Positions 10,228 to 50,582 of a stretch of DNA of 64,000 nucleotides are shown here, piece by piece. A program made the position numbers and the translations under genes. Source of the DNA: an uncultured Elusimicrobia bacterium (GTDB lineage: Bacteria > Elusimicrobiota > Elusimicrobia > 2-02-FULL-39-32); assembly GCA_964523525.1 (NCBI GenBank), contig CAZFYO010000001.1:65068-129067 (forward strand), written 5' to 3'. Each line of letters begins with the position of its first letter. Position 1 is the first letter of the stretch. The notes beneath the pieces were generated by a model. It saw only the letters and a program-made list of their open reading frames with translations. It searched no databases and was not told the DNA's origin.

Positions 10228-10244
10228 TTCGGTCCGGTTCGGGA

Positions 10245-11776: not shown

Positions 11777-13056
11777 CAGGGAGTGTCAAGCGAAACCGAT
11801 TCGTAGACGGGAAACCTGGCGAGGAACTTCGCGCCCGCGCCTTCCGCGGGCTCGATCGTCAACTCGCCGCCCATGAGAGCGATCCAGCGGAGCGCCTTGC
11901 TGAGTCCGAGCCCGGCCCGTCCCTTGCGCGTCGAAAAAAACGGCTGAAAAATTTTTTCGTGCAGGTGCTCGGGGATCCCGGGGCCGTTATCGGAAACGCT
12001 GAACCCCACCCAGGCTCCGCCCGGGTCCTTTTCCGTCTTGAGGCGCAGTTCGCGGGCTCCGCCGTCCGCCGCGTTCGCCGCCATTTCCTGAATTGCCAGG
12101 CCCAGGAGGTTCTCGTCCAGCATCACGGGCGCCGTCGCGCCTAAATCTTTTTGAACGTCCAGTTTGGACTGCTGGATCCACGCTTCGGAGGCGGCGAGCC
12201 AATGCTCGAGCGCGGCGCCGACGGTGACTTTTTCGGCTTTCAGCTCGGGCTGATGGTTCAGCTCCGCGAAACTTTGCAATCCCTCCTCCAGCTTTTCGAT
12301 GGCGCGCGATTTTTCGCTCAAAACCTGCGTGATGAACTCCGTATCATTTTGCTGCGGCAGCTTCCGGCTGCGCTCTTTAAGCAGCTGCGCGGTTCCGCCC
12401 AATCCGCCGATCTGGTTCTGGATGAACCCGGCGAGTCCGTTCATCAGCAGGCGCTCTTCGCTCACGATCAGCTGTTTTTGCCGGGCCATCAGGCGGTAGA
12501 GCTCCGCGAAGAGCCGCTCTTTGACTTCCGACTTGTCTGCGCTGGATTTTTCGCGCATCATCACGACGGTTTCGGCCCAGTCCTGGACGTGTTTTTTGAA
12601 ATCGTTGTCGACGCTATCCATTTCGCGCTTCAAAATCTCGCGGCGCTGTTCCAGGGTTTCCACGTTCCAGACCCACTGCCCGCGGAGCCGCGCCTGGTCC
12701 CCGCGCAGCTGCGAGGAGCGCTTCTCGAGACGCTCCACCTCTTCGTTCAGCTCCAAAATTTTGCGGTTGGCGGATTCGGCCGCGACTTTCGCCTCGAGGT
12801 TTTCGCGCTTCAGGCCGGCCACCTCGCGCTCCAGGTCGGCCAGGCGGAACTTGGCTTCCTCTCCGGAAATGTTGGACAGCCGTTTCAGAATGCTGATTTC
12901 ATCTTCGTAAACCTGTTTCTGTTTCTCGAGGCCGCGCTCCTCTTCCGCCACGCGCGCCTGCAGCTCCTCGAGCGTCTTCAGCCGATTTTCGTCGGAGATG
13001 TGGCTGCGCAGCTCGGCGAAGAGCTGGAATATCGCTTTGCCTTTCGGCCGCGTCAC
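11776..13056 (-). CDS. Soluble coiled-coil protein with a histidine-kinase-type ATPase domain; H-box histidine apparently missing
   Basis: 426 aa, GTG start overlapping the upstream stop (GTGA). About 200 aa of heptad-like E/K/R/L sequence. C-terminal HATPase_c motifs are present (N-box EMAANAADGG, G1 SDNGPGIP, G2 GRAGLGLS). The segment where the H-box should lie reads LAGFIQNQIGGLGGTAQLL, with no His. Confidence 0.75.
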   Translation of the reverse strand: MTRPKGKAIFQLFAELRSHISDENRLKTLEELQARVAEEERGLEKQKQVYEDEISILKRLSNISGEEAKFRLADLEREVAGLKRENLEAKVAAESANRKILELNEEVERLEKRSSQLRGDQARLRGQWVWNVETLEQRREILKREMDSVDNDFKKHVQDWAETVVMMREKSSADKSEVKERLFAELYRLMARQKQLIVSEERLLMNGLAGFIQNQIGGLGGTAQLLKERSRKLPQQNDTEFITQVLSEKSRAIEKLEEGLQSFAELNHQPELKAEKVTVGAALEHWLAASEAWIQQSKLDVQKDLGATAPVMLDENLLGLAIQEMAANAADGGARELRLKTEKDPGGAWVGFSVSDNGPGIPEHLHEKIFQPFFSTRKGRAGLGLSKALRWIALMGGELTIEPAEGAGAKFLARFPVYESVSLDTP

Positions 13057-14504
13057 GGGATCACCAGCTCTTCGTTCTCTTTGGGCACGCCGCGGATGAT
13101 CTTGGCCTCGTTAACGTCGTAAATCACCTGCCATTGGTTGGGGTCGCCGTAATATTTCTGCGCGATGCCCCGCAGGGTATCGCCCGGCGCGACGCGGTGT
13201 TTGCGCACGTCGCCCGAGAACGGCGGCCGCGTTTCGACTTTTGGGTTCGCCCGCTCTTCCTTTCGGGTAAGCTTGGCTTTCTGCTCCTGCAGTTTTTTCA
13301 GCTCTTCTTCGCTCTTTTTCAGTTCTTCTTCCCGGTCTTCAATCGTGTTCTCAAGCTCCTGAAGCTCCTTCATCGCCTTTTCGCGCTTTTCGCGCGCGAG
13401 TTCCAGGTCCGACTGCATGGCTTCGTACAATTCTTTCGATTCGCGGATCGATGTTTTCAAAGTATCGTGTTTCGATTCGAGGTTCGTGACCTTGTTTTCA
13501 ACCTCGTCCGCTTTTTCGAGACGCTCCTGGTAAAAATATTGCGCGAGCAATGGCGTTCCGAAACGGTACGTCACCGCCACGAGCACCCGGTCGTTGGGTT
13601 TGGACATTTTTTCGACCTGGAAACCGTAGCCGATGTCGAGCTGGACGGGCGGCAGCACCGCGCCCAGGCCGATGGTGAGCTGGCGCGCCTGGTCGGCGGC
13701 CTTGGTGGAGCCCAGCCGGAGCAGGAGGAGCCGGCGGAAGAACGCGATCTCCAGGCCCGGCTGAAAACTGCCGACGCCGTTTTCCACCACGAAATCGAGG
13801 GAAAGCGTGGACTGCGGATTTTTCCAGGCCGCGCCGAACCGATAGAGGACGGGCGACGATATGGACTTCATGTTCATCTCCTGGATCGCAATGGCCGTGG
13901 ACCATCCACTGGTGAGAGGCATCTCGCCTTCGTTGAATTTGTAGAGGAAGCCCAAGTCGATGCCCGCGCCGAAACCGCCGTTATCGCCGCCGCGGTCGCG
14001 CATCCGGAACGTGAGGCCCGTGCTCAGGTTCTGCAGCTCTTTTAAGATTCTCGTTCCCGCGGGCAGCACGTCCATGATGTTCGTTCCGAACGAGGCGCCG
14101 AACGTCGTGTAGGTTGCCTCGCCCTCGCGCCCGGTGCGGTGCAGCATCATGCCGGCGGTCCCGTATTTCCAGTAGGGTCTGTACGCTTCCAGGGGAAGGA
14201 CGCCGGCCACGTGGATTTCGCTCTGCGGAAAGGGATATTCGGAGTAGGATCGCCCGGCCAGGCCCGCCACTTCAATGTGTTTCACGTTGCCGAGTCCCGC
14301 GGGATTAAAGAACATCGCGTTGTAATCGTTGCCCACCGCGGAAAAACCGTTGCCCATGGCGAAAGCACGTGCGGATTCGGGCCGCGGGCTCACGGCTTGC
14401 GAATCATAAGGGAGAAAAATGGCGGAAGCCAGGCCGAGGGCGGCCCATAAAACCCGTCCCCGGATGAATCGGCTCGAAGAAATTTCAGCGATGTGAGTTT
14501 TCAA
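13053..14504 (-). CDS. PorV-like outer-membrane beta-barrel fused to a coiled coil and a C-terminal LysM domain
   Basis: 483 aa with a signal peptide (VLWAALGLASAIFLPYDSQA). Carries the N-terminal motif ARAFAMGNGFSAVGNDYNAMFFNPAGLG shared with three other barrels in this window. The barrel ends ...VAVTYRF. An ~90-aa E/K-rich coiled coil follows, then LysM-like HRVAPGDTLRGIAQKYYGDPNQWQVIYDVN. TTG start. Confidence 0.7.
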   Translation of the reverse strand: MKTHIAEISSSRFIRGRVLWAALGLASAIFLPYDSQAVSPRPESARAFAMGNGFSAVGNDYNAMFFNPAGLGNVKHIEVAGLAGRSYSEYPFPQSEIHVAGVLPLEAYRPYWKYGTAGMMLHRTGREGEATYTTFGASFGTNIMDVLPAGTRILKELQNLSTGLTFRMRDRGGDNGGFGAGIDLGFLYKFNEGEMPLTSGWSTAIAIQEMNMKSISSPVLYRFGAAWKNPQSTLSLDFVVENGVGSFQPGLEIAFFRRLLLLRLGSTKAADQARQLTIGLGAVLPPVQLDIGYGFQVEKMSKPNDRVLVAVTYRFGTPLLAQYFYQERLEKADEVENKVTNLESKHDTLKTSIRESKELYEAMQSDLELAREKREKAMKELQELENTIEDREEELKKSEEELKKLQEQKAKLTRKEERANPKVETRPPFSGDVRKHRVAPGDTLRGIAQKYYGDPNQWQVIYDVNEAKIIRGVPKENEELVIP

Positions 14505-24196: not shown

Positions 24197-24592
24197 ATGA
24201 ACAAGAAGACGAGCCATCGTTGGATTGTACTATTCGCCGCCGTCTTATCGACGGGGTTCCTTTTTGCCGTGGGGGAAACGCCCACCCTCATCGATGAGGT
24301 CGTGAACTACCCCAATCCCTTTGACAGCCGCCGCGAGGACACCACGGTTTCCTATCGCCTCATCCAGGATCTGCCGGTCCGGGTCCGGATCTACGATTTG
24401 TTCGGCTACCAGGTCCGCGAACTGTACTTCCATTCGGGCTCTATCGGCGGGCAGACCGGCATCAATACGTTCCGCTGGGACGGGACCGACAGCGCGGGCC
24501 AGAAGGTATCCAAGGGCGGCTATATCTGCATGATCACGGTGGAAGGCGACCAGCCCACCCGCTCGATCCGTAAGATAGGAGTGGTCCATTAA
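24197..24592 (+). CDS. Small secreted protein consisting of a signal peptide plus one FlgD-Ig/T9SS-CTD-like beta-sandwich
   Basis: 131 aa with a signal peptide (WIVLFAAVLSTGFLFAVG). NYPNPFDS...VRVRIYDLFGYQVREL...FRWDGTDSAGQKVSKGGYICMITVEG matches the FlgD-Ig / Por-secretion-tail pattern. Good RBS (AAAGGGGAG). Confidence 0.7.
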   Translation: MNKKTSHRWIVLFAAVLSTGFLFAVGETPTLIDEVVNYPNPFDSRREDTTVSYRLIQDLPVRVRIYDLFGYQVRELYFHSGSIGGQTGINTFRWDGTDSAGQKVSKGGYICMITVEGDQPTRSIRKIGVVH

Positions 24593-24603
24593 GTAACCGA
24601 TTT

Positions 24604-26220
24604 ATGGCGAACCTGAAACGCAGCCATCGCCGCGCGAAAGTCCAGGGCCTGATCAAGGTCCTGCACGGCGCTTTGCTGTCGACGGCGGTCCTGGCTTCCA
24701 CCGTTTTCGCCGCGGGCGATACGGGCGGCCAGGTCGCGCAGTTCATGTCCTTCGGAGCGGGCGCTCGCTCGCTCTCCATGGGCCGCGCGTTCTTCGCGGT
24801 TTCCGATGACGCTTCAAGCGTTTACTCCAACCCGGCCGGCATGACCCAGCTTGAAAAGAAGGAGATCGGCTTCATGCAGGCGACCGTGGGCCTCGATTCC
24901 CAGCTGACCACCATGAACTACGTCCACCCTTCCAAGAAGGGCTGGGTCTGGGGCATCAACATGACCCAGATGAAGACGGGCGGGTTCGAGAAAGTGACGG
25001 TTAAGAGGAACAGCGCAGGAGAAATTTCGGAGCTCAAGAAGGGGGGCGATTTTTCGGACAGCAGCACGGGCTACATCTTCGGGTTCGGTAAAAAGGTGCT
25101 GAACACCCTGGCCGTGGGCATGTCGATCAAGCAGATTTCCCGGCAGCTGGACGATTCCGCCGATTCCGTCATCACCGCGGACGCCGCGGCGCTGTCCTAT
25201 CCCATGACCGACAATGCCAACTACCGCCTGGCGTTCGGCATCCAGAACATCTTCGCGATCCAGTCCGGCGATACCGATGACAAACTCCCGCTTTTGATCA
25301 AGGTCGGCAATTCCTATAAAGGCTTGAAAGACCGGATGCTGCTGGCGTTCGATATCACGCAGAACTTTACCCGGAACGTGACGGAGTGGAACATGGGCGC
25401 GGAATACTGGGTCTGGAAATACGTGGTGCTGCGGGCCGGCGTGGAAGGCAACCCCGGTTTGCGCCAGTCGAGCTTCGGACTGGGACTCCGCGTCAAAGGC
25501 GTGAACCTGGACATCGCGCAGGGCCTCACCGATTTGGGCGTTTCGTCCCGCATGGGCGCGTCCTGGAAGTTCGGCAAGTCGGTCATCGCGAAACGCGAAG
25601 ATACCGCCCGCCGGCTGATCCAGGAAGGCATCGCGGCGTACCAGCAGGGCAACTACGTGCTGGCGCTGGACCGGTTGAACCGTTCGCTTGATCTCGACCC
25701 GACCAACAACGATATCCGCACCCTGGTGGCGCGGCTCTCCGCCGTCGTGACGACGATGCCGTCGGCCGCCGGCGACAACGAAGTGGCCGGCATCATCCGC
25801 AAATCCATCCAGGATTACCTGAAAGGCGACAACAAGTCCGCCATCAATTCTCTGCGCTACGCTTATCTCGAAAAAGACCCGACCAACGAGAAGCTGCTCC
25901 AGGTGCTGAACAAGATCGAGAAGGAAGCCCGCGAGAAGATCACCGAGCGCGCCGATCAGAAGAAGAAAGGCTTCTCCTACATCGACCAGAAACTCTACGA
26001 CGCCCTGCAATCGATTTACGACGCGAAGTACGACAAGGCCATCATCCTCCTGCAGGAAGTGCTGGATCTGGACCCGCAGAACATCGAGGCCATGAAGCGT
26101 TTGGGATCGGCATTCTTCCTGATCGAACAAAAGGCCCAGGCCAAGGAAGTCTGGTCGCGCGCCATGGAGCTGGACCCCTCGGATCAAGTTATACAACAGT
26201 ACTTGAATCAGATCCCTTAG
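24604..26220 (+). CDS. PorV-like outer-membrane beta-barrel with a C-terminal TPR extension
   Basis: 538 aa with a signal peptide. Carries the motif GAGARSLSMGRAFFAVSDDASSVYSNPAGM. The barrel ends ...RMGASWKF at about aa 325. About 200 aa of TPR-like repeats follow (GNYVLALDRLNRSLDLDPTN, KYDKAIILLQEVLDLDPQN, AQAKEVWSRAMELDPSD). Confidence 0.75.
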   Translation: MANLKRSHRRAKVQGLIKVLHGALLSTAVLASTVFAAGDTGGQVAQFMSFGAGARSLSMGRAFFAVSDDASSVYSNPAGMTQLEKKEIGFMQATVGLDSQLTTMNYVHPSKKGWVWGINMTQMKTGGFEKVTVKRNSAGEISELKKGGDFSDSSTGYIFGFGKKVLNTLAVGMSIKQISRQLDDSADSVITADAAALSYPMTDNANYRLAFGIQNIFAIQSGDTDDKLPLLIKVGNSYKGLKDRMLLAFDITQNFTRNVTEWNMGAEYWVWKYVVLRAGVEGNPGLRQSSFGLGLRVKGVNLDIAQGLTDLGVSSRMGASWKFGKSVIAKREDTARRLIQEGIAAYQQGNYVLALDRLNRSLDLDPTNNDIRTLVARLSAVVTTMPSAAGDNEVAGIIRKSIQDYLKGDNKSAINSLRYAYLEKDPTNEKLLQVLNKIEKEAREKITERADQKKKGFSYIDQKLYDALQSIYDAKYDKAIILLQEVLDLDPQNIEAMKRLGSAFFLIEQKAQAKEVWSRAMELDPSDQVIQQYLNQIP

Positions 26221-26271
26221 TCTGTTATATAGCGATCGGGGGATATACTTAAGGAAAGAAGAGGTACGACA

Positions 26272-28239
26272 TTGAATCACGCGGATCAAAATCGGGGGTC
26301 CTTGCGACTGGCCGATTTTTTTATTTTCGGGCGGATTTTCCTGCTCGCGGCCGCGCTCGTTTTTGCCTGCAAACCCATTTTTTCCGAGGACGCGCCGCCC
26401 AAGGAGCCGGGCGAGTCGGAGCTGATCGAGCGGCAGAGGATCATGGAGCGCGATCTCGAAGCGCGTATCCAAAACGTCCTGAACAAGACGCTCGGGCCCG
26501 ACCAGTCGGAAGTGAAGGTCAGCATCAATTTATCGGTGATGAAGGACGTCAAGAAGAAGTCCGGATCGGGACAGCAGAAAAAACAGAAAGAAGAAAATCC
26601 TCTGGGCGACACCAAATTTATCCTGCCGGGCGTGCCCGCGCCCAAGAACGTGGGCAAGGAAAAAGAGCCCGAGAACGTCACGAAGCAGCAGGCCGAACAG
26701 GAGCGCGAGCAGACGCAGATCAGCTTCAAGGTCATCACCTCGAAGCGCGAAGCCGTGGTCTTTTACAACGAGAAAATGAAAGCCAAGGAGGCGGAAGCCA
26801 AGCGCGCGGTGATGGCGCTGACCGACCTCAAGGACGAAGAGCTCAAGTTCATACCCGGCAAGTTCTTCACGTCGGTCTCGACGTACTGGGAAGAGTTCAT
26901 CAAGGACCCGAAGAACCTCATCTTTTCGGCCTTGCTTTTCCTCCTGCTCCTCCTCATCCTGTGGCTCTTCATCCCCCTCACCAGCTTTTTCAAGAATTAC
27001 ATTACGGCCATGAAAGAGAAGGCCGGGATCGAAGTGAAGATGGAATCGTCGAGCGAAGACGAGACCGATGCGAACAGAGACGGGCTCTCGCCCGAGGAGC
27101 TCGCAGAACGCGGGCTGCTGGGCGAAGACGGGAAGGAGGGTGAGGGAGAAATGGCGAAGAAATACGCACCGTTCGAATATATCACCGAGGAGAATTTGAA
27201 GCGCCTCCTGGGCGTGTTCCGCAAGGAGCCGCCGCAGGTCATCGCGCTTGTTCTCTCTTACCTGAAACAGGACCTCGTGAAGACCATCTATTCCGAGCTC
27301 CCCGTCGACCTCCAGGTGAAAGTCGCGGCCGAGGCCAGCGCCGTGCGCCAGGCGACCGAAGAACAGGTCCGCATGGTCGATGAAAACATCAAGGCCAAGA
27401 TTGATTTCGTGGTGGGCGGCGTGGACAACCTCATCAAAATTCTGGAAGAAGTGGATTACAAAATCCGCGACAACATCCTCGAATATTTGATGAACCACAA
27501 GCCGCAGCTTTACGAAAAAGTCCGGTCCAGCATTCTGCTGTTCGAAGATTTCGTGAAGTTCCCCGACCCCGCGGTGCAGACCATTTTGCGCGAGCTGAAA
27601 ACCGACCAGCTGGCGCGGTGCCTGCGGAACGCGAGTCCGGAGCTTCTGAACAAGTTCATGACCAACATGTCGCAGGGAGGCGCGGCGCTCCTGAAGGAAG
27701 AAATGGAGTTCGGCCGGCCCGTGAGCGACGATCAGATCGAGATGGACCGCCAATCGGTGATGAACAGCGTCAAGCAGATGGAAAGCGACGGAAAAGTCGC
27801 CATCCGCGAAAAGAAGAAGATTTCCGTCTTCGAATCGGAAGACGCGACGTCGCCTTTGACGCCCAGCATGCCGGACGAGTCCGGTTCGCGGCGCGGCGGC
27901 AAGGGCCCGGGACTGGGATTGCCGTCGGCGGCTCCCGCGCCGGGCGCCGGAGTTTCGGGCGCTGCCGGAGAAGCCGGGAACGAGGCCGCGTCCTATATTT
28001 CCTACGGCGAACAGCTCTACGCGGAAGAAAAGTTTGATGAAGCCCTGACGTACCTGCAGCACGGGGTCGAGCAGGACCCGAACAACGCGGCGGCTTATCA
28101 GACGATGGGCCACTGCTATTACAGCTTGAGCATGCCCACCGAGGCGCTGCAGTGCTACGAGTACGCGCTGTCGCTCGCGCCGGGCGACGAAACGCTCCGC
28201 CAGTGGGTGGAGCAGTTCAAGCAGAGCGTCGGAGCTTAA
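26272..28239 (+). CDS. Bitopic membrane protein: FliF/YscJ-like ring-building motif (periplasmic) + FliG middle and C-terminal domains (cytoplasmic) + TPR tail
   Basis: 655 aa, TTG start with RBS AAGGAAAGAAGAGG. TM1 is aa 16-35. The periplasmic segment IMERDLEARIQNVLNKTLGPDQSEVKVSINLS resembles the FliF segment ALEGELARTIETLGPVKSARVHLAMP. TM2 is aa 215-240. Aa ~298-512 align by eye to FliG: KEPPQVIALVLSYL vs EHPQIIATILVHL, and NMSQGGAALLKEEMEFGRPVSDDQIE...MESDGKVAI vs NMSQRAADILRDDLANRGPVRLSQVE...LAETGEMVI. TPR spans aa ~573-650. Confidence 0.8.
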   Translation: MNHADQNRGSLRLADFFIFGRIFLLAAALVFACKPIFSEDAPPKEPGESELIERQRIMERDLEARIQNVLNKTLGPDQSEVKVSINLSVMKDVKKKSGSGQQKKQKEENPLGDTKFILPGVPAPKNVGKEKEPENVTKQQAEQEREQTQISFKVITSKREAVVFYNEKMKAKEAEAKRAVMALTDLKDEELKFIPGKFFTSVSTYWEEFIKDPKNLIFSALLFLLLLLILWLFIPLTSFFKNYITAMKEKAGIEVKMESSSEDETDANRDGLSPEELAERGLLGEDGKEGEGEMAKKYAPFEYITEENLKRLLGVFRKEPPQVIALVLSYLKQDLVKTIYSELPVDLQVKVAAEASAVRQATEEQVRMVDENIKAKIDFVVGGVDNLIKILEEVDYKIRDNILEYLMNHKPQLYEKVRSSILLFEDFVKFPDPAVQTILRELKTDQLARCLRNASPELLNKFMTNMSQGGAALLKEEMEFGRPVSDDQIEMDRQSVMNSVKQMESDGKVAIREKKKISVFESEDATSPLTPSMPDESGSRRGGKGPGLGLPSAAPAPGAGVSGAAGEAGNEAASYISYGEQLYAEEKFDEALTYLQHGVEQDPNNAAAYQTMGHCYYSLSMPTEALQCYEYALSLAPGDETLRQWVEQFKQSVGA

Positions 28240-28248
28240 AGGATCGAC

Positions 28249-31200
28249 ATGGCGGACATCAGAGACAAGATCAAGACCTGGCTGAACAAGTCGCAGGATG
28301 AGGCGGCCGCCGCGCGTCCGCCCGCGTCCGGCCAGGCTCCGGGCCAGGCGCCCGCGCCGTCGTCCAAGACGCCCGAGGCGAAAGTTCCCGAACCGAAAGC
28401 CTCCGAACCGGAAGAGCCTCTGGATCTGACCGTGACCGAACCGAAAACCACGGAGCCCGGCAGCCGCCGCAACGCCGCGATGAGCCGCATGTCTTCCGCG
28501 GAAAAGGGAACCTATTTGCTGCAGGAACAGTCGGACGCGGAGAAAAAGCTGGCCGAGCTGACCCAGGAGCTGGGCGACGTCCGCAGAAAATTTCACGACG
28601 ATATCCGCAGGAAGGAAGAAGAGAAGATCAAACTTTTCGCGCACCTGGCCCAGGCGGACCAGAAGAGCCAGGCTTCCATCAGCCAGCAGCAGGCGGCCAT
28701 TGAAAAACTGCAGCGCGAAAGCCAGATGGAGATCGAGGCGCTCGAAAAACGGCTTCAGGAAGAAAGCCGCGAATGGGCCGGCGAGATCGAGGCCATCGAA
28801 AAGAACAAGGGCGAATATTCCGCTGCCGGGGACTTGAAGCGGCAGGAACTGGAAATGCAGGAAAAGCACCGCATCCAGGACCAGCAGAAGATTTTAGATC
28901 AGCTGGACGGCCAGATTGATATGGTCAGAAATAAAATTGAAGGCGAAAGAAAGAAATATGAGGAGCGCATCCGAGTGATCGAAAACGACAACCTTTCCAT
29001 CAAATCCCAGATCCAGCTCAAACAGGCGACCCAGCGGACGCACGAGCAGAAGCTGGTCGAGGAATTTTCGAGCGCCCAGACCGATTGGGAGGCCCGCATG
29101 AGGGCTCTGCAGTCCCAGATGCAGGCCGAAAAGCAGAAGTGGCAGGAGGCTCTGGGTCATAAGGAAGCCGAGTTCCGGGCCATCAAGTCCGAATTGGAAA
29201 AGAAAGATTCCGCCATGAAATTCGCCCTGAAGAGCAAAAAGGAAGACCTGCTTTCCGCGCTGGCGCGCGCCGAGGCGAAGCTCAAGAGCCTTTCCGATGA
29301 GGCCAGAAAAGAAAAGATCGAGTACGAAAAGGATTTGAAGTTCCGCACCGACGAAGCGGAGAAGCTGAAAGTCGAGCTGATGCTGCTCGATTCCCAGCTG
29401 AAAGTCGAAAGCGAAAAGGCCGAGTCCTCCATTTTATCCCTGCAGCAGGAAGCCAACAACAAGATCTCGTTCCTGGAAAGCAAAATCCAGGAGGAAAGCC
29501 GCATCGGCCAGAAGCAGGTGGAAGAAAAGAAACAAGAGATCGACAACCTGGCGCTCCAGTTCGGCATTAAAAAGAGCTCTCTCCAGGAAGAATTCTTGCA
29601 GAAGAAAGCCGATCTGGAAAAGCGCAAGAAAGAGCTTCAGGAAGAGCTCAAAAAAGCCATCCGCCTGCTCGAGAAGGAGCGGGAGGACCACCGCATCGAA
29701 GTCGCGGAGCGCGACGCGGTCATCGCCAAGATCAAGCAGGAAATGGGCAAGAGCTCGGACGAAATGGCGAAGAAGCGAGAAGAGTTTTTGGTGAGCATGG
29801 ACGCCCAAAAGCAGGAAATGGCGGCCAAAATATCCGCGCTGGAAGAGCGCGTCAAGATTGAGAAGCAGGGACTGAACGAGCTGCTGGGCCGGGAAAATCA
29901 AACCCTGATGGAAAAGAAGGCGATGCTTTCCAAGGAACAAGCGCAGGTCCAGCACGCGGTCAAAAAGCAGGAGGACGAGCTCCATTTTGAGATCACGCCC
30001 ATCAAGAACCAGATCATGGACCAGCGCAACCGCCTCGAGCAGGAGCGCGCGTCGCGCGAAAAGATTTTAGGCGCCAAGGACCAGATTATCCAGAACCTGC
30101 AAAAGCAGAAACAGACGCTTCAGGAAACGATTTTCAATTCGCTGAGCCAGCACCAGGGCCTGATAGATAAGGAAAAGGGCAAGGGCGCAGAAAAGATCGA
30201 CGAGCTGCATAAGAAGTGGGAAGTCGAGAAGAGCACTTTGGAGCAGGCGATCGCCAGCATCCGCCGGGAATACGAAAACGTGCAGAATGAAGTCGCGAAG
30301 CTCCCGCCCCAGGCGGAGTCGCAGCTGAACCTCTTCATGACCGCGCACAAGAAGGAGCTGGAGTCGCTCCAGCAGCTCCACCAGTCCGCCGTCAGCCAGC
30401 GGGACCAGGAAGAAAAACTCCATCAGAACAAGATGGCGCAGATGCAGGCGAGAGAAGACGAGCTCGCGAAAGAGCACCAGTCCCTGCAGAACAAATTTGA
30501 GGAAGCGCGACGCCGCCAGGAAGAGCAGATCGCCGAACTTCACAAGAGCCAGCAGAAACGCTCGCAGGATGCGGAGCTCGAAATCAAAAAGGCCCGCGAC
30601 GATTATCAGGCGCTCCTGAAATCGTCCGAGCAGGAATTGGAAACGCAGAAGAAATCCCTGGCCGATAAAAAAGCCGCTTTTGAAACCGACCGGCAGACCC
30701 TGGAGGCCGATTGGAACGAGAAAAAGAAAGGCCTTGAGTCCAAGATCACTGAAATCCGGGGCCAGTACGAGTCGCAGAAGGCGATCTGGCAGAAGGCCCT
30801 GGCCGACAGCACGGCTCACATCCGCGGCCTCGAACAGAAGCTCGAGCATCAGAAGAACGAACATCAACGCACTCTGGAAGCCCTCGAAGCCCGCAAAAAA
30901 GCCCAGGAATCAGATTTTGCCGCGAAAATGGAAGATCTCCGCCGCCAGAAAGCCGGGGCCGGTGATGAGCAATCCACGAAGCTCAAAGAAAAGAGCGACA
31001 ACATGGCCGCGCTGGACCGGGAGATTCAGGATTTCATTCAGCAGTCGCAGACCGATGCCGCGAACCGCAAGGCGGATATCGAGCGCCAGCAAAAAGAGTT
31101 GGAATCGCGCAAACAGGGTCTGCAGAAGGAGCTGGAGCTCGAAAGCAAACGTTCTCCGGAACTGCTGGAACAGAAAGACCGTCAGATTCAGTCTCTGAAG

Positions 31201-33231
31201 ACCGAGCTCTCCGATAACGAAACGCGATTTAAGAACGAGTGGGAAAGCATGGAGTCCGAGTTCGCGGCGTTCAACAAGACGTCGGCGGAAGCGATCAGGA
31301 CTCTGGAAAAAGAGCTGCAGGACGGAGGGGCCTCCTTCGAAAAAACCCTCGCTGAAAGGAATTTGCGGGTCCAGTCGCTGCAGGAAGAGAAGAATAAGGA
31401 AGAGGTCAAATCCAACCAGGTTTTGACCCAGCTCACCAACGAGCTGAACAAAATGAAGGCCGCTTACGAGCTCGAGATCAAGGATTTGGAAAAGAAGATC
31501 GCTCAGGAAAAGGCGCGGTTCGAACAGCAGTTCAAGGTGCGCGAAGTCGACGTCGAAGGCCTGCAGAAAACCCTCGCGCAGAAGAAGTCGCAGAGGGACG
31601 CGGCCGTGGAATCGCGCAGCAAGGAGATCGAGCAGGAAAAGCGCCGGCTGTCTCTTAGAAAGGACGATCTTTCCAAGCGGATCGCCGAAGACCGCCAGCT
31701 GGCGCAGAAAACCGTGCGCGCCCGCGAAGAAGAGATTTCCAAAATCCAGGCGGAAATCAGCGTTCATAAGGAAGAGTTCCACGCCCAGGAATCCAAATTT
31801 AAGGAACAGATCCTCCGGGAACGGTCCAAATACGAGGGCCGCATCAAGGACCTGACCAAGCATTACGAAAAAGACATCGACTCCCAAACCCGTACGCTTC
31901 AGGAAAAACAGAAGGAGCTGGAGAAACTCAATCTGCAGCTTGGCAACTGGAACGAGAATGCCCGCCTCGAGGACGAAAAGAGCCGCGAGCGCTGGGAAGA
32001 AGAACGGCTCGGCTTTGAAAAGGAAATTCAGGAGCTGGAGTATCAGCTGGCCCAAGAGCGGACGTCCATCGACGAGGCGACCGAGAAAAAATCCGAGGAG
32101 ATCAAGCGGCTCACCGCGGATCTGGCGCGGCTCCAGCAGACCTATTCGGTCCAGCTGGCCGAGTTGAAACGCGAGAAGGACAACGTCGCCAACGAGGAAA
32201 CGGAGTGGGAGAACAAACTTAAAGATGAGAAAGGGCGGCTGGCGGAAGAGGTCCGCGCGACCGAGCGCGAGCTCGAGCGGATCAAGGTCCAGCTGGCGCT
32301 CAAAGAAACCCAGGTGAACATCGAGAAGCAGAAGAAGGAGCGCGAGATCCGCTGGGCGAAGCGGCCGCTGGAGTTCAAGCTGCTCGAGTTGAAACGCAAG
32401 CAGGAAGAGAAGGAGCGCGAAGGCCGCCGCCGGTCCGAGCTCGTGGAAGCGGAGCGGAAACGCCTCGTGGCGGAAATCAAGCAGCTCGATGGGTTGATTC
32501 AGGACGAATCGAAAAAACGGGATTCCGTCCTTTCCGGATACAAAGACGAGGTGAAACACCGCATCCAGGGCCTGAGGGAGCAGGTGAAATCGGACAACAC
32601 CTCCCTCGTGCAGATGTTGTCGGCCCGCCGGGAAGAGCTGACCGGATTAAAAAACGCGTTGAAGAGCATGGACCAGGTTTTGAAGGAGTTTGAGGGAGCC
32701 AGCCAGCCCGTGCATTTCGCGGAACTGGAAGACGAGATCGCGCAGCTGGAACAGGAGCTGGCCGCGGCCGCCGAGAAAGGAAGCTCTGGATCCGCGCAGG
32801 CCGAGATCAAGGATTTCCAGCAGGAGATCAAAAACAAGAACAGGAATATATCTCAGGAGCGTTCCAAGTCGGAAAAAATTTTATCGAAGGTCAAAGGAGG
32901 GCTGGATCCCTTCTTCAAGGCGACCGACCAGTTGAGCCAGGACGCCGCGGCCGCGCGAGAGAAGTCGTCGAAAGCGAAGGCCCTGATGGAACAGGGCATG
33001 CGGGCGTTCGCGGAAGAGCGGCTGGCCGAAGCCCAGAATTATTTCCTGCAATCGATCGATCACGATTCCCGCAACGCGGTCTGTTATCAAATGCTGGGGC
33101 TCGCGTCCGAAAAGATGAAAGATATCGCGAAGGCGCGCGGTTATTTCAAGAAAGCGCTGGAGCTGGAGCCCGGAAACCAATTTCTCAAAAATCATCTGAG
33201 CCAAATGGATCAAAGTAACAAAGGAGCATGA
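28249..33231 (+). CDS. Giant (1660 aa) coiled-coil protein with a Pro/Ala-rich N-terminus and a C-terminal TPR module
   Basis: About 1450 aa of nearly uninterrupted E/K/Q/L/R heptad-like sequence. N-terminal PPASGQAPGQAPAPSSKTPEAKVPEPKASEPEEP. C-terminal AEAQNYFLQSIDHDSRNAVCYQMLGLASEKMKDIAKARGYFKKALELEPGN (TPR). Starts 9 nt after the upstream stop. Confidence 0.8.
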   Translation: MADIRDKIKTWLNKSQDEAAAARPPASGQAPGQAPAPSSKTPEAKVPEPKASEPEEPLDLTVTEPKTTEPGSRRNAAMSRMSSAEKGTYLLQEQSDAEKKLAELTQELGDVRRKFHDDIRRKEEEKIKLFAHLAQADQKSQASISQQQAAIEKLQRESQMEIEALEKRLQEESREWAGEIEAIEKNKGEYSAAGDLKRQELEMQEKHRIQDQQKILDQLDGQIDMVRNKIEGERKKYEERIRVIENDNLSIKSQIQLKQATQRTHEQKLVEEFSSAQTDWEARMRALQSQMQAEKQKWQEALGHKEAEFRAIKSELEKKDSAMKFALKSKKEDLLSALARAEAKLKSLSDEARKEKIEYEKDLKFRTDEAEKLKVELMLLDSQLKVESEKAESSILSLQQEANNKISFLESKIQEESRIGQKQVEEKKQEIDNLALQFGIKKSSLQEEFLQKKADLEKRKKELQEELKKAIRLLEKEREDHRIEVAERDAVIAKIKQEMGKSSDEMAKKREEFLVSMDAQKQEMAAKISALEERVKIEKQGLNELLGRENQTLMEKKAMLSKEQAQVQHAVKKQEDELHFEITPIKNQIMDQRNRLEQERASREKILGAKDQIIQNLQKQKQTLQETIFNSLSQHQGLIDKEKGKGAEKIDELHKKWEVEKSTLEQAIASIRREYENVQNEVAKLPPQAESQLNLFMTAHKKELESLQQLHQSAVSQRDQEEKLHQNKMAQMQAREDELAKEHQSLQNKFEEARRRQEEQIAELHKSQQKRSQDAELEIKKARDDYQALLKSSEQELETQKKSLADKKAAFETDRQTLEADWNEKKKGLESKITEIRGQYESQKAIWQKALADSTAHIRGLEQKLEHQKNEHQRTLEALEARKKAQESDFAAKMEDLRRQKAGAGDEQSTKLKEKSDNMAALDREIQDFIQQSQTDAANRKADIERQQKELESRKQGLQKELELESKRSPELLEQKDRQIQSLKTELSDNETRFKNEWESMESEFAAFNKTSAEAIRTLEKELQDGGASFEKTLAERNLRVQSLQEEKNKEEVKSNQVLTQLTNELNKMKAAYELEIKDLEKKIAQEKARFEQQFKVREVDVEGLQKTLAQKKSQRDAAVESRSKEIEQEKRRLSLRKDDLSKRIAEDRQLAQKTVRAREEEISKIQAEISVHKEEFHAQESKFKEQILRERSKYEGRIKDLTKHYEKDIDSQTRTLQEKQKELEKLNLQLGNWNENARLEDEKSRERWEEERLGFEKEIQELEYQLAQERTSIDEATEKKSEEIKRLTADLARLQQTYSVQLAELKREKDNVANEETEWENKLKDEKGRLAEEVRATERELERIKVQLALKETQVNIEKQKKEREIRWAKRPLEFKLLELKRKQEEKEREGRRRSELVEAERKRLVAEIKQLDGLIQDESKKRDSVLSGYKDEVKHRIQGLREQVKSDNTSLVQMLSARREELTGLKNALKSMDQVLKEFEGASQPVHFAELEDEIAQLEQELAAAAEKGSSGSAQAEIKDFQQEIKNKNRNISQERSKSEKILSKVKGGLDPFFKATDQLSQDAAAAREKSSKAKALMEQGMRAFAEERLAEAQNYFLQSIDHDSRNAVCYQMLGLASEKMKDIAKARGYFKKALELEPGNQFLKNHLSQMDQSNKGA

Positions 33232-35252
33232 CCATGCCAGAGCTGCCGCCCAAAAGAATTCCGCCCCCGTTAGGAGGCATGAAACCCCCTATGAAAGCGC
33301 CCGGCGCGCCGGGACTTCCCGGATTGCCGGGAGCGAAACCTCCCATGATGCCCGGCCAAACCCCAGCGCTCCCTGGGGCCAGACCCGGCATGCCCGGCCA
33401 GCATGGAATGCCCGCCGCGAACGCTCCTTCCAGCGCGGTCATTGAGGAACGGCTCAGGAAGATGGAAGAGCACGCGCGGGAAATCGAAGATTCGAAGAAA
33501 AAACTGGAAAAATCCCTCGCCGAGATGGAGATCAAGCTCAAGGACGAGAAGGAAAAAGCGCTCTCGCAGGCGATCAAGGCCCGCGAAGAGGAAGCCCTTT
33601 CCCTCAAGATGGAGCAGGCGCTCAAGGAAATGCAGGACAAGGCGCGCGTCGCGCGCCGCGAACAGGAAATGGAAGAGTCCCGCGCCCGCGCCGAGGAAAA
33701 GGCGAAAGACCTCGAACGCAGGCTGAACGAAGAGCGCGAAGCCTGGGTGATCAACCTGAAGAAGCAGATGGAGATGCGGGACCATGAAACCAAGCAGGTC
33801 GAAGGCCAGATCGAAAGCCGGTTTCACGATCTCGAAAGGCGCTGGCTCGAAGAACGGTCGGCGCTGATCCAGTCGCTCAAGTCCAAAGAGGACGAGACGC
33901 AGGATTTGAAGCAGCGGGCGGACCGCGCGGAGATCGAGCTCCACCGGATCCGGGAAGAGTCGATCAAGTCGGTCGAGCAGGAGCGCCGGAACCTGGCGTT
34001 CGAGTTCGAGTCCCGCAAGGACGAATTGCTGCGCGAGAGGGATTCTCTCGCCTCGGCGCTGGACCAGCGCGAAAACGAGCTGATGTCGCTCCGCGCCCAG
34101 CTGGCGATGGTGGATTCCCAGGTCCGCATGGCGCAGGAATCGGCGCAGAAGGGCCTGAACGAAAAGGAACGCGCCTGGCAGATGCAGATCGGAGAGATGG
34201 ACCGCGAATTCTTCCAGCTGAAACAGACGCGGGACCGCCTCGTTACCGAAAACGAAACTTTGAAGGGCGAGCTGCGCGACGTCCGCGAGCGCGCCGACGC
34301 CTTCCAGCAGAAGATGAATGAATTGCGCCTCGAAGCGGTCCGGAAAGGCGACGAATGCGAGGCTTTGTCCCGGGAGCTTTTCACGGAGCGCCAGACCTGG
34401 AGCGGCAAGATCGAGGAACGCATCCTGATGGAGCGCAACCTCCAGGAAACGCTGAACGCGCGCGAAAGCGAGCTGGGACGGCTGAAAAGCGTGTCCGCGG
34501 CGCTGGAATCGCGCCTCAAGGAGCAATTTGAGAAAGAGCGCAAGGAAGTCGAGCAGGCCAACCTGCGGTTACTGCGCGAAAAAGAGCAGAGCTACGCGGA
34601 TCTGAAAATGATCTCGGAGAGGGATAAGAGCATCATCCGCCTGGACCTTCAGGAAAAGATCGCGGAGCGCGAGCGGGAAATCGCGGCCTTAAAGCTCGAC
34701 TTCGCCCATATGCGGGCCGACTTGCTGAAACAATTCGACAAGGATAAGGAAGCCGCCCAGCACCAGTTCCAGCGGGAGTTCGGCGTGCGCGCCGACCTCA
34801 TGCAAAAGGAGCTGGACGAGGCGCACCGCGCCATGATGTCCGAGCTCGAGGCTTATGACGGAAAGATCAAGGCCGAGGAAGCGCGCCATCAAAAGGAAAT
34901 GCAGTCCAAAGAAGCTGAGGTTGTCCGGGCGGCCGAATCGGTCCGCCGGATGGAAGCCCTGGTTTCGGAGGAGCGCGAAGAGCTGGCCAGGGACCGGAGC
35001 GCCATGGAGCAGAAATTCTCCGAGGACGCGGCCCGGCTGCGCGAAAACTTTCAGAGCGAAAAAGAGCGGCTGGAACGTCAGTTGAGCGAAGCCGCCAGCG
35101 CGGCCGGAGACGACGGTTCGGGACTGTATTTCGAGCGGGAAAACAACGACCACCTGTCGCTCGGCCAGCTGATCTGGAAGTACCTGACGCGGACCGTGAT
35201 CGTTATTAATTTCAGGGGCGTTCCCCGCAAGTTCAGGAAGGTGCAGGAATGA
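33228..35252 (+). CDS. Proline/glycine-rich N-terminus + ~550-aa coiled-coil protein
   Basis: 674 aa. The ATG overlaps the upstream stop (ATGA); an alternative ATG at 33234 has better spacing from AAAGGAG. N-terminal PPKRIPPPLGGMKPPMKAPGAPGLPGLPGAKPPMMPGQTPALPGARPGMPGQHGMP, followed by E/R/K/L-rich coiled coil. Confidence 0.7.
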   Translation: MTMPELPPKRIPPPLGGMKPPMKAPGAPGLPGLPGAKPPMMPGQTPALPGARPGMPGQHGMPAANAPSSAVIEERLRKMEEHAREIEDSKKKLEKSLAEMEIKLKDEKEKALSQAIKAREEEALSLKMEQALKEMQDKARVARREQEMEESRARAEEKAKDLERRLNEEREAWVINLKKQMEMRDHETKQVEGQIESRFHDLERRWLEERSALIQSLKSKEDETQDLKQRADRAEIELHRIREESIKSVEQERRNLAFEFESRKDELLRERDSLASALDQRENELMSLRAQLAMVDSQVRMAQESAQKGLNEKERAWQMQIGEMDREFFQLKQTRDRLVTENETLKGELRDVRERADAFQQKMNELRLEAVRKGDECEALSRELFTERQTWSGKIEERILMERNLQETLNARESELGRLKSVSAALESRLKEQFEKERKEVEQANLRLLREKEQSYADLKMISERDKSIIRLDLQEKIAEREREIAALKLDFAHMRADLLKQFDKDKEAAQHQFQREFGVRADLMQKELDEAHRAMMSELEAYDGKIKAEEARHQKEMQSKEAEVVRAAESVRRMEALVSEEREELARDRSAMEQKFSEDAARLRENFQSEKERLERQLSEAASAAGDDGSGLYFERENNDHLSLGQLIWKYLTRTVIVINFRGVPRKFRKVQE

Positions 35253-35911
35253 ACGAAGAGCTCGCCAGGCTGGGAAAAAACTGGGAAGGGCGCATCAAGT
35301 CGATACAGAAAAACATCGCGGCGTCGGAAGCCCGCATGATGCCGGCGCCGATAACGGCTGCTCCCGCGCGATTTTCCGCGCCGGAAACCGGGTTGAAGTC
35401 GCAGTTCGAGGAACTTAAGCAGAGCCTCGCCGAGTTCGCCGCCGAATGGGGAAAGAACCGCCCGGCGGCCGCCTCTGTTTCGGGGCCCGATACCGCCCGC
35501 ATTGACGCGAGGCTCGGGGCGCTCGAGAAGCAGTGCGAAGATTTCAGAAACGCGCTTTCGGAAGTGCAGAAGATCGAATCGTTCATGAAGGACGCGCGCC
35601 AGAAGCAGTATGAGACGTTCGTCGAGGACCGCGGCAAGCTCCGCGTGGACTATCTGGATTTGAAGCAGGAAGTGACGCAGAAGCTGAAGATCATGCAGCT
35701 GCGCATCGAAGACCTCCTCGCGGCCAGCGCCGCGCAGTCGTTCAAAGCCGTGGACGCGCCCGAAGGCGAGGCGCACGACGTGTCCCATCTGAGCAGCATT
35801 GCGGGGACGGAGGAAAAAGGGTTCCTGCAGAGGCTGGCCGAATGGTGGAACGAGCCGGTCCTATCTTTCTCGAAAGACGAGCCGAAGGACGGTCCGACGG
35901 AAAATTCTTGA
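35249..35911 (+). CDS. Hypothetical helical protein, last gene of the coiled-coil operon
   Basis: 220 aa. ATGA overlap with the upstream gene. Predicted helical or coiled segments. No family recognised. Confidence 0.6.
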   Translation: MNEELARLGKNWEGRIKSIQKNIAASEARMMPAPITAAPARFSAPETGLKSQFEELKQSLAEFAAEWGKNRPAAASVSGPDTARIDARLGALEKQCEDFRNALSEVQKIESFMKDARQKQYETFVEDRGKLRVDYLDLKQEVTQKLKIMQLRIEDLLAASAAQSFKAVDAPEGEAHDVSHLSSIAGTEEKGFLQRLAEWWNEPVLSFSKDEPKDGPTENS

Positions 35912-35976: not shown

Positions 35977-36576
35977 ATGGGAGCAGATGTTCTAGTCCTC
36001 AACCGCAACTTTTACGCCGTCCACATCACCTCATGGCGGCGAGCCCTCTCCCTTCTGTATTTAGACCACGCCCGCGTCGTTGATCAGGAATATAAAACCT
36101 ACAGCTTTGCCGACTGGCGCGAACTCTCCCAGCTCGTCGACGACAATCCCGCCGGCTACGTTCGCACTCCTTCTTTCAAGATCGCCATCCCCGAAGTCAT
36201 CGCGCTCCGGATGTACGACGAGCTGCCCGTTTCCGAAGTCAAATTCACCCGGCGCAACATCTACGAGCACTACAGCTACATCTGCTGTTACTGCGGCAAG
36301 AAATTCGCCACGAACAATTTGAACCTGGAGCACATCATCCCGCGCTCGCGCGGCGGACAATCGACCTGGAGCAACGTCGTGACGTCCTGCATCGCCTGCA
36401 ACATCAAGAAGGGCAACAAGCTTCCCGAGGAAGCGGGCATGAAACTTTTGATCAAGCCCTCGAAGCCCAAGTGGCGCGGGGCGCAGTCGCTCATCCTGCA
36501 CGCTTCGTTCAAGGTGAAAGCCTCCTGGCAGCGCTTCGTGGACGCCGCCTACTGGAACACCGAGATCGAAGATTGA
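35977..36576 (+). CDS. HNH endonuclease family protein
   Basis: 199 aa. CCYCGKKFATNNLNLEHIIPRSRGGQSTWSNVVTSCIACNIKKGN is a complete HNH/Zn-finger motif. RBS GGAGG lies 7 nt upstream. Confidence 0.85.
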   Translation: MGADVLVLNRNFYAVHITSWRRALSLLYLDHARVVDQEYKTYSFADWRELSQLVDDNPAGYVRTPSFKIAIPEVIALRMYDELPVSEVKFTRRNIYEHYSYICCYCGKKFATNNLNLEHIIPRSRGGQSTWSNVVTSCIACNIKKGNKLPEEAGMKLLIKPSKPKWRGAQSLILHASFKVKASWQRFVDAAYWNTEIED

Positions 36577-46496: not shown

Positions 46497-46961
46497 TTGA
46501 AGAAAAACGACAGAGTCTCACCGTCGAAAATCCGGGCGATCTGCAAGATCACCGGGGTTTCTCTCGTTTTTTTTGCCACTAACCTGAACCTGCTTTTCAG
46601 CGCCGAGCGCAAGGTCGCGAACCCCTCCAAATTTAAGGTCAATTATTCCCTGCAGAAATCGGGAGCTTCCGGCGGATCGGGGCCCAACGCTTTCGGCGCT
46701 CCGGGACTTTTCGGAGCCTCGGGCGTTTCGGGCGGATCGGCGGCCGCAGCCAGCATCGCGGTCAACATCCTCGACGAGCGGTTCTATCCCATCAAAGCCT
46801 TCGTCCTGCGGGACGTGACGGACACTTCCCGGGTCGAGTCCCTCTGGGACGGCCGCGACGTGTACGGCAAGGAATCTCCCGCCGGCAGATATTACGCCCA
46901 GCTTTCGATCGTGTATGGCGACGGCAGCCGCGAAACCAAGGTCTTCAAGTTCGTCAAATGA
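46497..46961 (+). CDS. Small secreted protein: signal/TM + Gly/Ser/Ala linker + FlgD-Ig-like domain
   Basis: TTG at 46497 preceded by GGGGGA. The ORF-track start at 46362 would overlap the divergent panD start. Hydrophobic ITGVSLVFFATNLNLLFS. Linker GASGGSGPNAFGAPGLFGASGVSGGSAAAA. C-terminal LWDGRDVYGKESPAGRYYAQLSIVYGDG matches the FlgD-Ig pattern. The stop overlaps the next ATG (ATGA). Confidence 0.6.
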   Translation: MKKNDRVSPSKIRAICKITGVSLVFFATNLNLLFSAERKVANPSKFKVNYSLQKSGASGGSGPNAFGAPGLFGASGVSGGSAAAASIAVNILDERFYPIKAFVLRDVTDTSRVESLWDGRDVYGKESPAGRYYAQLSIVYGDGSRETKVFKFVK

Positions 46962-50581: not shown

Positions 50582-50582
50582 G

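Follow-up and report, generated by a model that had tools for sequence, protein, structure and literature searches.

What kind of machine is encoded when a protein of the flagellar rotor lies next to an outer-membrane barrel? This question is raised by six open reading frames (ORFs), here called P1 to P6, on the plus strand at positions 24197-35911 of a 64,000-nucleotide (nt) stretch from an uncultured Elusimicrobia bacterium (GenBank assembly GCA_964523525.1, contig CAZFYO010000001.1, positions 65,068 to 129,067 of the forward strand); the whole stretch is called the window. To our knowledge, FliG and the FliF ring have so far been found only in flagella. The cluster is most likely the "type C" version, that of the window's own lineage, of a trans-envelope machine which occurs across Elusimicrobiota and whose invariant core is P3, a fusion of a FliF-like ring-building motif (RBM) with FliG. 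Our overall reading, which we advance tentatively and at a little under an even chance, is that a flagellum-less phylum possesses an undescribed ion-driven machine made of a one-piece FliF(RBM3)-FliG rotor, MotAB/FlbD stators, a PorV-like barrel and a giant surface protein (8-14 thousand amino acids, aa) anchored by its C-terminal domain (CTD), and that the window holds a remodelled version with the stator unlinked or lost. The six ORFs run in one direction and are closely packed, with gaps of 11 nt (P1-P2), 51 nt (P2-P3) and 9 nt (P3-P4) and ATGA overlaps at 33228 (P4/P5) and 35249 (P5/P6), and a terminator scan of 24197-35911 found sites between the genes at chance level only. An initial annotation, made from the sequence alone, had described this arrangement as an envelope-spanning gene set; the ORF calls and a junction check confirmed its coordinates and both overlaps, and the domain calls support the span.

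The FliG part of P3 was identified directly. FliG_C (PF01706) matched aa 406-511 with 97.4 bits (cutoff 23.3, E 7.7e-28) and FliG_M (PF14841) matched aa 311-378 with 39.4 bits (cutoff 25, E 7.3e-10), strong scores that bear out the FliG assignment made initially. The two domains aligned contiguously to the FliG of Thermotoga maritima (1lkv, E 3.6e-33; Foldseek 3e-11), and the structural matches of FliG_C to 1qc7 and 8ucs_H had TM-scores of 0.84-0.93. The full-length model TIGR00207 reached 115.9 bits, about half of its cutoff of 226.7, and covered model positions 109-330 only, so P3 is without FliG_N. Hydrophobic segments at aa 11-38 and 212-244 enclose a periplasmic region of only ~170 aa, in which PF01514 (RBM1/RBM2) had no match at E <= 0.1 and for which the direct Pfam and NCBIfam scans of P3 returned no YscJ_FliF. 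The AlphaFold2 (AF2) model of P3 (pLDDT 72) contains an alpha-beta-beta-alpha-beta unit in this region. When the domain was searched against the PDB by Foldseek, the top 17 entries were all FliF MS-ring structures, mostly the RBM3/collar part (best E 7.8e-5, probabilities 0.85-1.0), and they were followed by SpoIIIAG, one more FliF entry and PrgK (ranks 18, 21 and 24 among them). A family profile of the domain had 279 matches only among 1.84e9 representative proteins, and it reached canonical FliF (PF01514 + PF08345) at the PF08345 region with a library-wide E of ~2e-6. PF08345 gives direct matches in sister fusion proteins (P0371 at 2.5e-8), and hhalign aligned the domain profile to the single sequence of Escherichia coli FliF at residues 227-272, where RBM3 starts, albeit with weak values (E 0.005, probability 7%). 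The "ring-building motif" that had been proposed for this region is thus without a direct Pfam match, yet its assignment to the RBM3/PF08345 part of FliF is supported by the family profile and by the modelled fold.

The fold match, the profile match and the direct FliG matches together make P3 a natural FliF(RBM3)-TM-FliG(M+C)-TPR fusion (TM, transmembrane segment; TPR, tetratricopeptide repeat), in which the covalent link stands in for the contact between the FliF C-terminus and FliG_N. The family is conserved over its full length. In the model, a loop of low confidence that bears the invariant motif LPGVPxPK takes the position of the FliF beta-collar, the invariant prolines of P3 being P119, P122 and P124, and the C-terminal TPR, modelled with pLDDT above 90, is conserved in the family and includes a near-invariant W645. 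Among further matches of ~160-240 aa (P0286, P0303, P0313 and others), many are stand-alone proteins of ~180-220 aa with little beyond an RBM3-like periplasmic domain, one of them named and from Elusimicrobia; they could be gene fragments from short contigs or a separate ring-forming partner.

The architecture of P3 was found in more than 100 protein clusters at 33-89% identity, and those named by organism all belong to Elusimicrobia/Elusimicrobiota, except two labelled just "bacterium". There are 293 confirmed loci of the P3 family in GTDB species representatives, and the best 80 are all from Elusimicrobiota, including Endomicrobia and Elusimicrobiaceae. Neighbourhoods were typed in 82 distinct loci obtained with tblastn seeds; downstream genes were counted in loci with at least 6 kb of downstream sequence (n=52) and the PorV-TPR gene, the counterpart of P2, in loci with at least 2 kb upstream (n=67). 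FlbD, MotA and MotB are present in 40 of the 52 loci, and the exceptions are of type C or D without exception (12/12); the PorV-TPR gene and P5 were each found in 61/67. Chance juxtaposition was rejected on these neighbourhood counts. The FliF/FliG protein, taken as an orphan by the initial annotation, is indeed one at the window locus but not in its relatives, and because the fusion is co-operonic with FlbD-MotA-MotB in so many loci, a rotor/stator-type machine or a derivative of one fits better than the passive tether that had been suggested.

Four neighbourhood types were distinguished, each of them a coherent clade in a rough FliG tree. Type A, the majority, has the order giant CTD-bearing ORF, PorV-TPR, FliF-FliG-TPR, P5, FlbD, MotA, MotB and a lipoprotein-like gene; its giant ORF runs on over more than 2,300-2,700 aa as far as the edge of the locus, gene calls reach 7,967 and 13,779 aa, and some type A loci contain an extra 583-aa coiled-coil protein between FliF-FliG-TPR and P5. 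Type B consists of FliG, FlbD, a 56-aa TM protein, MotA and MotB and has neither a barrel nor a CTD protein nor P5. In type C, the clade of the window (60-89% identity), a CTD-only gene, PorV-TPR, FliG, P4, P5 and an HNH gene lie between the same housekeeping flanks, and type D, the Endomicrobia-type, likewise has a CTD-only protein (129-177 aa), a TPR-ended protein of 1,601-1,861 aa and P5. The gene order was therefore rightly predicted to be conserved, in close relatives and in a second, distant lineage, with the exception of P6, which is not in the conserved set. The window lineage has a CTD-only stub in place of the giant and an additional coiled-coil/TPR protein of ~1,600 aa, and its locus carries no stator genes. 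The locus L060 encodes a large coiled-coil protein together with FlbD, MotA and MotB, so such a protein and a stator are not mutually exclusive. Two further variants were seen. An Endomicrobiales metagenome-assembled genome (MAG; L092, GCA_016930715.1, 10001-14703) has a giant and, after two other genes, a FliF-FliG fusion of 478 aa that is without a TPR, then MotA, a tandem pair of MotB genes and a TPR protein of 285 aa encoded separately, which means that the TPR can be a polypeptide of its own; upstream are a FecR-like gene and one for a protein of more than 2,988 aa. In a JGI metagenome contig (3300037054, L093) a 7,555-aa giant with its own CTD, a 122-aa CTD-only protein and PorV-TPR are followed by a histidine-kinase-FliF-FliG fusion, a 357-aa protein without family match, MotA and MotB. 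The rotor variant of this contig (10001-12544) carries HisKA and HATPase_c in front of FliF_C-FliG_MC, a hint that the machine may be wired directly to signalling.

Flagellar genes (fliF, fliM/N, flhA, rod, hook) were found neither in the window nor in ~80 related loci, and SprA, PorK or a PorN-like component of type IX secretion systems (T9SS) was seen in no locus. The ORFs scanned across the window contained no flagellar or T9SS-core Pfam domain, in agreement with what had been claimed for these 64 kb at the outset.

The linked MotA is closest to flagellar MotA and to PomA (6ysl, 9e-45) and had no match to ExbB/TolQ structures. It is 74-89% identical across the top 120 clusters, the window clade not being among the matches listed. 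The co-operonic FliF-FliG-TPR proteins are only 33-39% identical (loci L003-L087), so that the stator evolves far more slowly than the presumed rotor. Residues were mapped on the E. coli K-12 sequences of FliG, MotA and MotB. MotA R90 is K or R in 47/47 sequences, P173 and P222 are kept in 47/47, and MotB D32 is kept in all readable sequences (44/45, one being an ambiguous X). On the rotor side, D288 of FliG is E in 80/80 proteins and D289 is E throughout types C and D (18/18 proteins) and variable in types A and B; R281 is G in 77/80, and E98 of MotA is Q in 29/47. P3 of the window has R at K264, G at R281, E at D288, E at D289 and S at R297. R281 of FliG with E98 of MotA is stated to be the second ion pair of E. 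coli (PMC7564593); the replacements by G and Q mean that this pair is lost on both sides. From the residues kept and exchanged, the rotor-stator interface of the family looks like a working but simplified one.

The outer part of the machine would be formed by P1 and P2. P1 has a hydrophobic N-terminus and a single beta-sandwich domain. It scored marginally under the cutoff of FlgD_ig (26.4 bits vs 27) and under that of TIGR04183 (20.2 bits vs 23), so it does not classify as a T9SS type A sorting domain (TIGR04183 / PF18962). Its best NCBIfam alignments were to the C-terminal domains of PorU (E 3.5e-11) and PorZ. In relatives this locus position is taken by giant proteins (7,967 and 13,779 aa), and P1 shares 43-46% identity with their last ~110 aa. 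Judged by these alignments, the likeness of P1 to a T9SS CTD, already noticed initially, appears real even though the scores are just under the cutoffs. Lineages C and D have CTD-only orthologues of 128-204 aa, and the coexistence of a CTD-only gene with a CTD-bearing giant in L093 indicates that the CTD-only protein is a component in its own right and not mere debris. P2 passed the model of the PorV/PorQ family (NF033709, 96 bits vs cutoff 90; aa 44-323 on model positions 3-320 of 326), as expected from the PorV-like assignment made before; Pfam gave UPF0164 and FadL-like matches and several TPR families at aa 330-530 (~200 aa). Both the PorV equivalog (NF033710, 19.8 bits vs 250) and the PorQ one (NF033711, 45.9 vs 220) failed. 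Since P2 passes the broad family model only and the window has no T9SS core, it is not a T9SS PorV or PorQ proper. In L003 and L004 the gene that lies upstream of FliG has 40-42% identity to P2, and the TPR tail of P2 is presumed to be periplasmic. The barrels PorV and PorQ retain PorU and PorZ at the cell surface, and the CTD of PorZ is uncleaved (PMC8545088), which is a precedent for the P1-P2 pair.

Two more pairs of a large surface protein and a barrel lie further downstream in the window. At 46958-51596 a 1,207-aa protein with an NHL/YNCE propeller, HYR, fn3, Big_7 and a Por_Secre_tail CTD is followed 2 nt on by a 337-aa PorV/UPF0164-like barrel, this one without TPR tail. At 52742-58764 a 1,688-aa fn3/Big_7 protein with a partial Peptidase_M23 match overlaps by 4 nt with a 319-aa PorV/UPF0164-like barrel, after which come DUF5666, a PMT_2 glycosyltransferase and a 613-aa TPR protein. 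The G+C content of 52-56 kb is much lower than elsewhere (0.39-0.46 vs ~0.57-0.60), and horizontal acquisition or repetitive composition is possible. With these two extra pairs, the pairing of CTD protein and barrel looks like a general theme in this genome.

On the presumed cytoplasmic side, P4 and P5, both read as soluble coiled-coil proteins, have no TM segment, are rich in E, K, Q and L and show heptad-like periodicity. P4 is 54% heptad-like by a crude score and bears its TPR at aa 1575-1643. Its orthologues measure 1,595-1,660 aa in lineage C and 1,601-1,650 aa in lineage D, except in L033 (1,861 aa) and in L012, where the ORF was called at 963 aa; orthology between C and D is given by the matching C-terminal TPR (E 1e-23 to 7e-4), and P4 is not present in the main stator-linked loci. 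The length of P4 is nearly constant across two deeply diverged lineages though its sequence has almost wholly diverged (L006, L008, L010 and L011; L022, L029, L041, L043, L045, L048 and L057). P4 is in this respect reminiscent of a molecular ruler, of ~0.24 µm if the coiled coil is continuous. P5 is the most widely conserved partner of the FliG gene; in L003 and L004 the protein encoded between FliG and FlbD shares 33-34% identity with it, and the proline-rich N-terminus of P5 is seen in lineages A, C and D. For P6, tblastn found no orthologue in relatives, low-level coiled-coil similarity apart, and the Pfam, NCBIfam and PADLOC models gave no family match. Without a detectable orthologue of P6, the conserved unit is one of five genes.

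From the domain identities, synteny and residue conservation observed here, we infer a working mechanism. P3 would oligomerise into a ring like the MS-ring, with FliG forming a ring at the cytoplasmic face, and MotAB/FlbD units, anchored to the peptidoglycan and driven by ion flow, would push on the acidic torque helix and could thereby rotate the ring. From the periplasmic ring, movement or force would reach the PorV-like barrel by way of its TPR tail, and the contact might be made by the invariant proline-rich loop of P3. The barrel would hold the CTD and the giant surface protein at the cell surface, or in the window lineage a CTD cap only. P5, together with P4 in the window lineage, would serve as a cytoplasmic coiled-coil scaffold that docks on the ring, possibly through the TPR of P3, and the proline-rich N-terminus of P5 may be a ligand of that TPR. 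A docking logic shared by all three TPR modules, which had been suggested for P2, P3 and P4, is doubtful, as the TPR of P2 should be periplasmic and those of P3 and P4 cytoplasmic. The output could be the moving or tensioning of a huge adhesin, in surface motility or attachment, or else the secretion of that adhesin. We rate the chance as even that the machine of the window lineage is still driven in this way, by a stator encoded elsewhere.

Several results weigh against this reading. FlbD, MotA and MotB were not found by tblastn in the window, and no stator gene lies just past its right edge. Types C and D as a whole have no stator in cis and another accessory set (CTD-only protein and P4), and a non-motor function is possible for them. 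The interface is not canonical, since FliG_N, R281 and R297 are absent; the FliG_N model scored 16 bits on P3 (cutoff 25) and was placed on the M region. Modelled alone, the periplasmic domain had a pLDDT of 63, which is of moderate confidence, and its Foldseek matches had TM-scores of 0.34-0.51. The passage of the CTD across the outer membrane without a SprA-type translocon lacks an explanation, and all cultured members of the phylum have been reported to be non-motile (PMC11257099).

Among the alternatives, the one that survives best, and which we consider rather unlikely, is a static trans-envelope tether: the motor would have been lost in types C and D, and the P3 ring would anchor P4/P5 filaments to the P1-capped outer-membrane barrel, with a role in cell shape, polarity, division or envelope cohesion. 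It would agree with the absence of a stator in cis from 12/12 type C and D loci with sufficient sequence, with the non-motility of cultured Elusimicrobiota, with the shrinkage of the giant surface protein to a CTD stub and with the ~1,600-aa P4, which is of strikingly constant length and specific to C and D. However, the stator-facing helix of types C and D ("KEEM", both acidic residues in 18/18) is at least as canonical as that of the stator-linked lineages, which would be unexpected without a stator. L060 combines the large coiled-coil protein with FlbD, MotA and MotB, the Endomicrobiales MAG has a stator-linked FliF-FliG fusion, and homologues of motAB, flbD and fliG have been reported in an Endomicrobia-class genome by Uzun et al. 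(10.1101/2022.07.08.499144); these, too, speak against the tether.

A second alternative, which appears quite improbable to us, is a secretion or anchoring device in which FliF-FliG/MotAB powers the export or surface attachment of the CTD protein through or onto the PorV-like barrel, in analogy to GldLM/PorLM. The T9SS uses a MotAB-like 5:2 motor and would be a precedent for it. The tight linkage of CTD protein, PorV/PorQ-family barrel and motor genes is in line with such a device, and so are the two further pairs of large surface protein and PorV-like barrel in the window, but those pairs have no FliG or Mot partner, and the "cargo" in the window is a mere CTD stub of 107 aa. The short type B loci carry FliG, FlbD, MotA and MotB without any barrel or CTD protein, and SprA, PorK and a PorN-like component are missing from every locus.

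That P3 is a flagellar leftover, or the true FliG of a flagellum encoded elsewhere, is very improbable. The JGI annotation of family members reads "flagellar motor switch protein FliG", and a few Elusimicrobiota genomes have complete flagellar gene sets according to the preprint of Uzun et al. (10.1101/2022.07.08.499144). Against this, the 655-aa architecture is kept full-length in 293 species-level genomes, FliG_N is absent with the covalent FliF-like fusion replacing the FliF-FliG contact, the conserved partners are non-flagellar, the catalytic residues of the stator are intact and the phylum has been reported to be without flagellar machinery (PMC11257099). A canonical FliG was rejected on architecture (TIGR00207 at half of its cutoff, no FliG_N) and on synteny. 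An anti-phage defence of the Zorya kind, with a MotAB-like stator and a long coiled-coil effector arm, is hardly credible and was rejected on the PADLOC models: long coiled coils lie beside MotAB homologues in relatives and an HNH endonuclease gene lies directly downstream in type C loci, but P1-P6 match no PADLOC model, MotA has no ZorA match, MotB matches ZorB only as a generic MotB, and the locus is phylum-wide, vertically coherent, housekeeping-flanked and single-copy rather than a variable island.

The preferred machine, encoded beside stator genes in most relatives, would work like a flagellar rotor/stator combined with a T9SS-style surface anchor and is a member of neither system. As in the flagellar motor core, P3 has FliG M+C, an RBM3-type ring domain of FliF and a periplasmic domain between hydrophobic segments; the MotA/MotB of the relatives have the plug, OmpA domains and the key residues (R90-equivalent, P173 and P222; D32), an acidic residue of the torque helix is opposite the basic MotA residue, and the order flbD-motA-motB (FlbD/SwrD) is that of Firmicutes and spirochaetes. 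Unlike the flagellar core, P3 joins FliF and FliG in a single polypeptide, which has just the RBM3-like portion of FliF (no PF01514), is without FliG_N and carries an added TPR; R281 and R297 of FliG are lost. The loci lack export gate, rod, hook, filament and FliM/N, the partners are a PorV-like barrel, a CTD and coiled-coil proteins, and the window locus itself has no stator. The periplasmic RBM fold with an insertion is shared by SpoIIIAG and SctJ (PrgK) as well as by FliF RBM3, but FliF holds the top 17 ranks, the sequence profile reaches FliF only, and there is no sporulation or injectisome context.

A barrel gene of the PorV/PorQ family beside a T9SS-like CTD protein is also the arrangement of PorV-PorU and PorQ-PorZ, and the P1 CTD aligned best to the uncleaved CTDs of PorU and PorZ. 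In the gliding system SprB/SprF of Bacteroidota, a giant adhesin likewise occurs with an outer-membrane barrel next to it and a 5:2 motor driven by ions. The cluster differs from both in that PorK/L/M/N, SprA/Sov, PorU and PorZ are absent, MotAB occurs with FliG rather than GldLM/PorLM, and the P2 barrel has a TPR tail and specific PorV/PorQ scores far under the cutoffs; moreover, Elusimicrobiota are outside the Fibrobacteres-Chlorobi-Bacteroidetes (FCB) group in which T9SS has been described. The Agl-Glt machinery of Myxococcus is similar in that it spans the envelope and has a MotAB/TolQR-type motor, TPR proteins, outer-membrane barrels, a surface adhesin and a large cytoplasmic coiled-coil protein, a role like that of AglZ. 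The sequence relation to it is only a generic TPR one (GltE, E 0.012), AglRQS is TolQR-like whereas the MotAB here is of flagellar type, and Agl-Glt has neither FliG nor FliF.

In the preprint of Uzun et al. on magnetotactic Elusimicrobiota, homologues of motAB, flbD and fliG were described in most free-living members, flagellar structural genes were lacking there and the role of these homologues was called unclear (10.1101/2022.07.08.499144). The literature is in conflict in so far as flagellar machinery is said to be absent from all genomes (PMC11257099) or complete in a few (10.1101/2022.07.08.499144). Automated "FliG" labels on the fusion family may add to this conflict, and the preprint glosses the PF06289-type FlbD as a transcriptional activator. 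Neither PMC11257099 nor 10.1101/2022.07.08.499144 describes the fusion, the operon or the link to PorV, CTD and giant proteins, and the phylum goes unmentioned in a survey that covers MotAB together with its relatives outside flagella (PMC12505986). In the searchable literature we found no link of Elusimicrobia to T9SS or PorV and no non-flagellar FliG machine, which agrees with the initial statement that no system of such composition has been described. The system itself thus appears to be undescribed, and orphan fliG/motAB in the phylum had been noted once before.

If the reading is true, the FliF/FliG rotor would here be seen in use outside flagella for the first time, as would a second kind of machine based on the rotor-stator pair of flagella, and it could be a new organelle for surface motility or adhesin handling. 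The machine could descend from the flagellar motor in stripped-down form, or it could be related to the ancestor of that motor and lack the type III export apparatus, and it would give a direct handle on the evolution of the motor module with respect to the type III secretion core. For structural and biophysical studies of torque, a rotor made of one protein would be a simple system, and the PorV-like barrel with giant CTD proteins suggests an unknown way to move, tension or display very large surface proteins. The machine is also of relevance to the magnetotactic yet flagellum-less Elusimicrobiota (10.1101/2022.07.08.499144), and "FliG" annotations in ~300 species-level genomes are not to be taken as evidence of flagella.

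Table 1. Features of the six-gene cluster, in positions of the window.
Feature	Position	Strand	Description
P1, 131 aa	24197..24592	+	signal peptide and stand-alone T9SS-like CTD ("CTD-only")
P2, 538 aa	24604..26220	+	PorV/PorQ-family outer-membrane beta-barrel (aa 44-323), TPR tail (aa 330-530)
P3, 655 aa, TTG start	26272..28239	+	hydrophobic segment, FliF RBM3-like domain, TM, FliG M+C, TPR
P3 periplasmic domain, aa 44-212	26401..26907	+	FliF RBM3 / PF08345-like, with inserted LPGVPxPK loop
P3 loop peptide			FILPGVPAPKNV
P3 FliG middle + C domains, aa 299-512	27166..27807	+	includes torque helix "LLKEEM"
P3 C-terminal cytoplasmic TPR, aa 568-654	27973..28233	+	TPR_1, TPR_2, TPR_19
P4, 1660 aa	28249..33231	+	soluble coiled coil with TPR at the C-terminal end
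P5, 674 aa	33228..35252	+	proline-rich N-terminus, then coiled coil
P6, 220 aa	35249..35911	+	small soluble lineage-specific protein, translationally coupled to P5

The cluster is flanked by housekeeping genes upstream (tRNA-Glu, gyrA, hemD, inositol monophosphatase) and by an HNH endonuclease gene, cinA, metH, tgt and queC/F downstream, and the rest of the window contains sdh/frd, aconitase, an Omp85 protein, a histidine kinase and biotin synthase. The HNH gene (~199 aa, window 35977-36576) is immediately 3' of the cluster, with cinA next to it, and was found in the same place in all type C relatives with sufficient sequence (L006 19573-20172, L012 and L013); a promoter-like TTGACT of its own is possibly present right after the stop of P6. 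On the minus strand, four co-directional ORFs without Pfam matches (window 9118-11776 and 13053-14504) surround a histidine-kinase-like gene (11776-13056).

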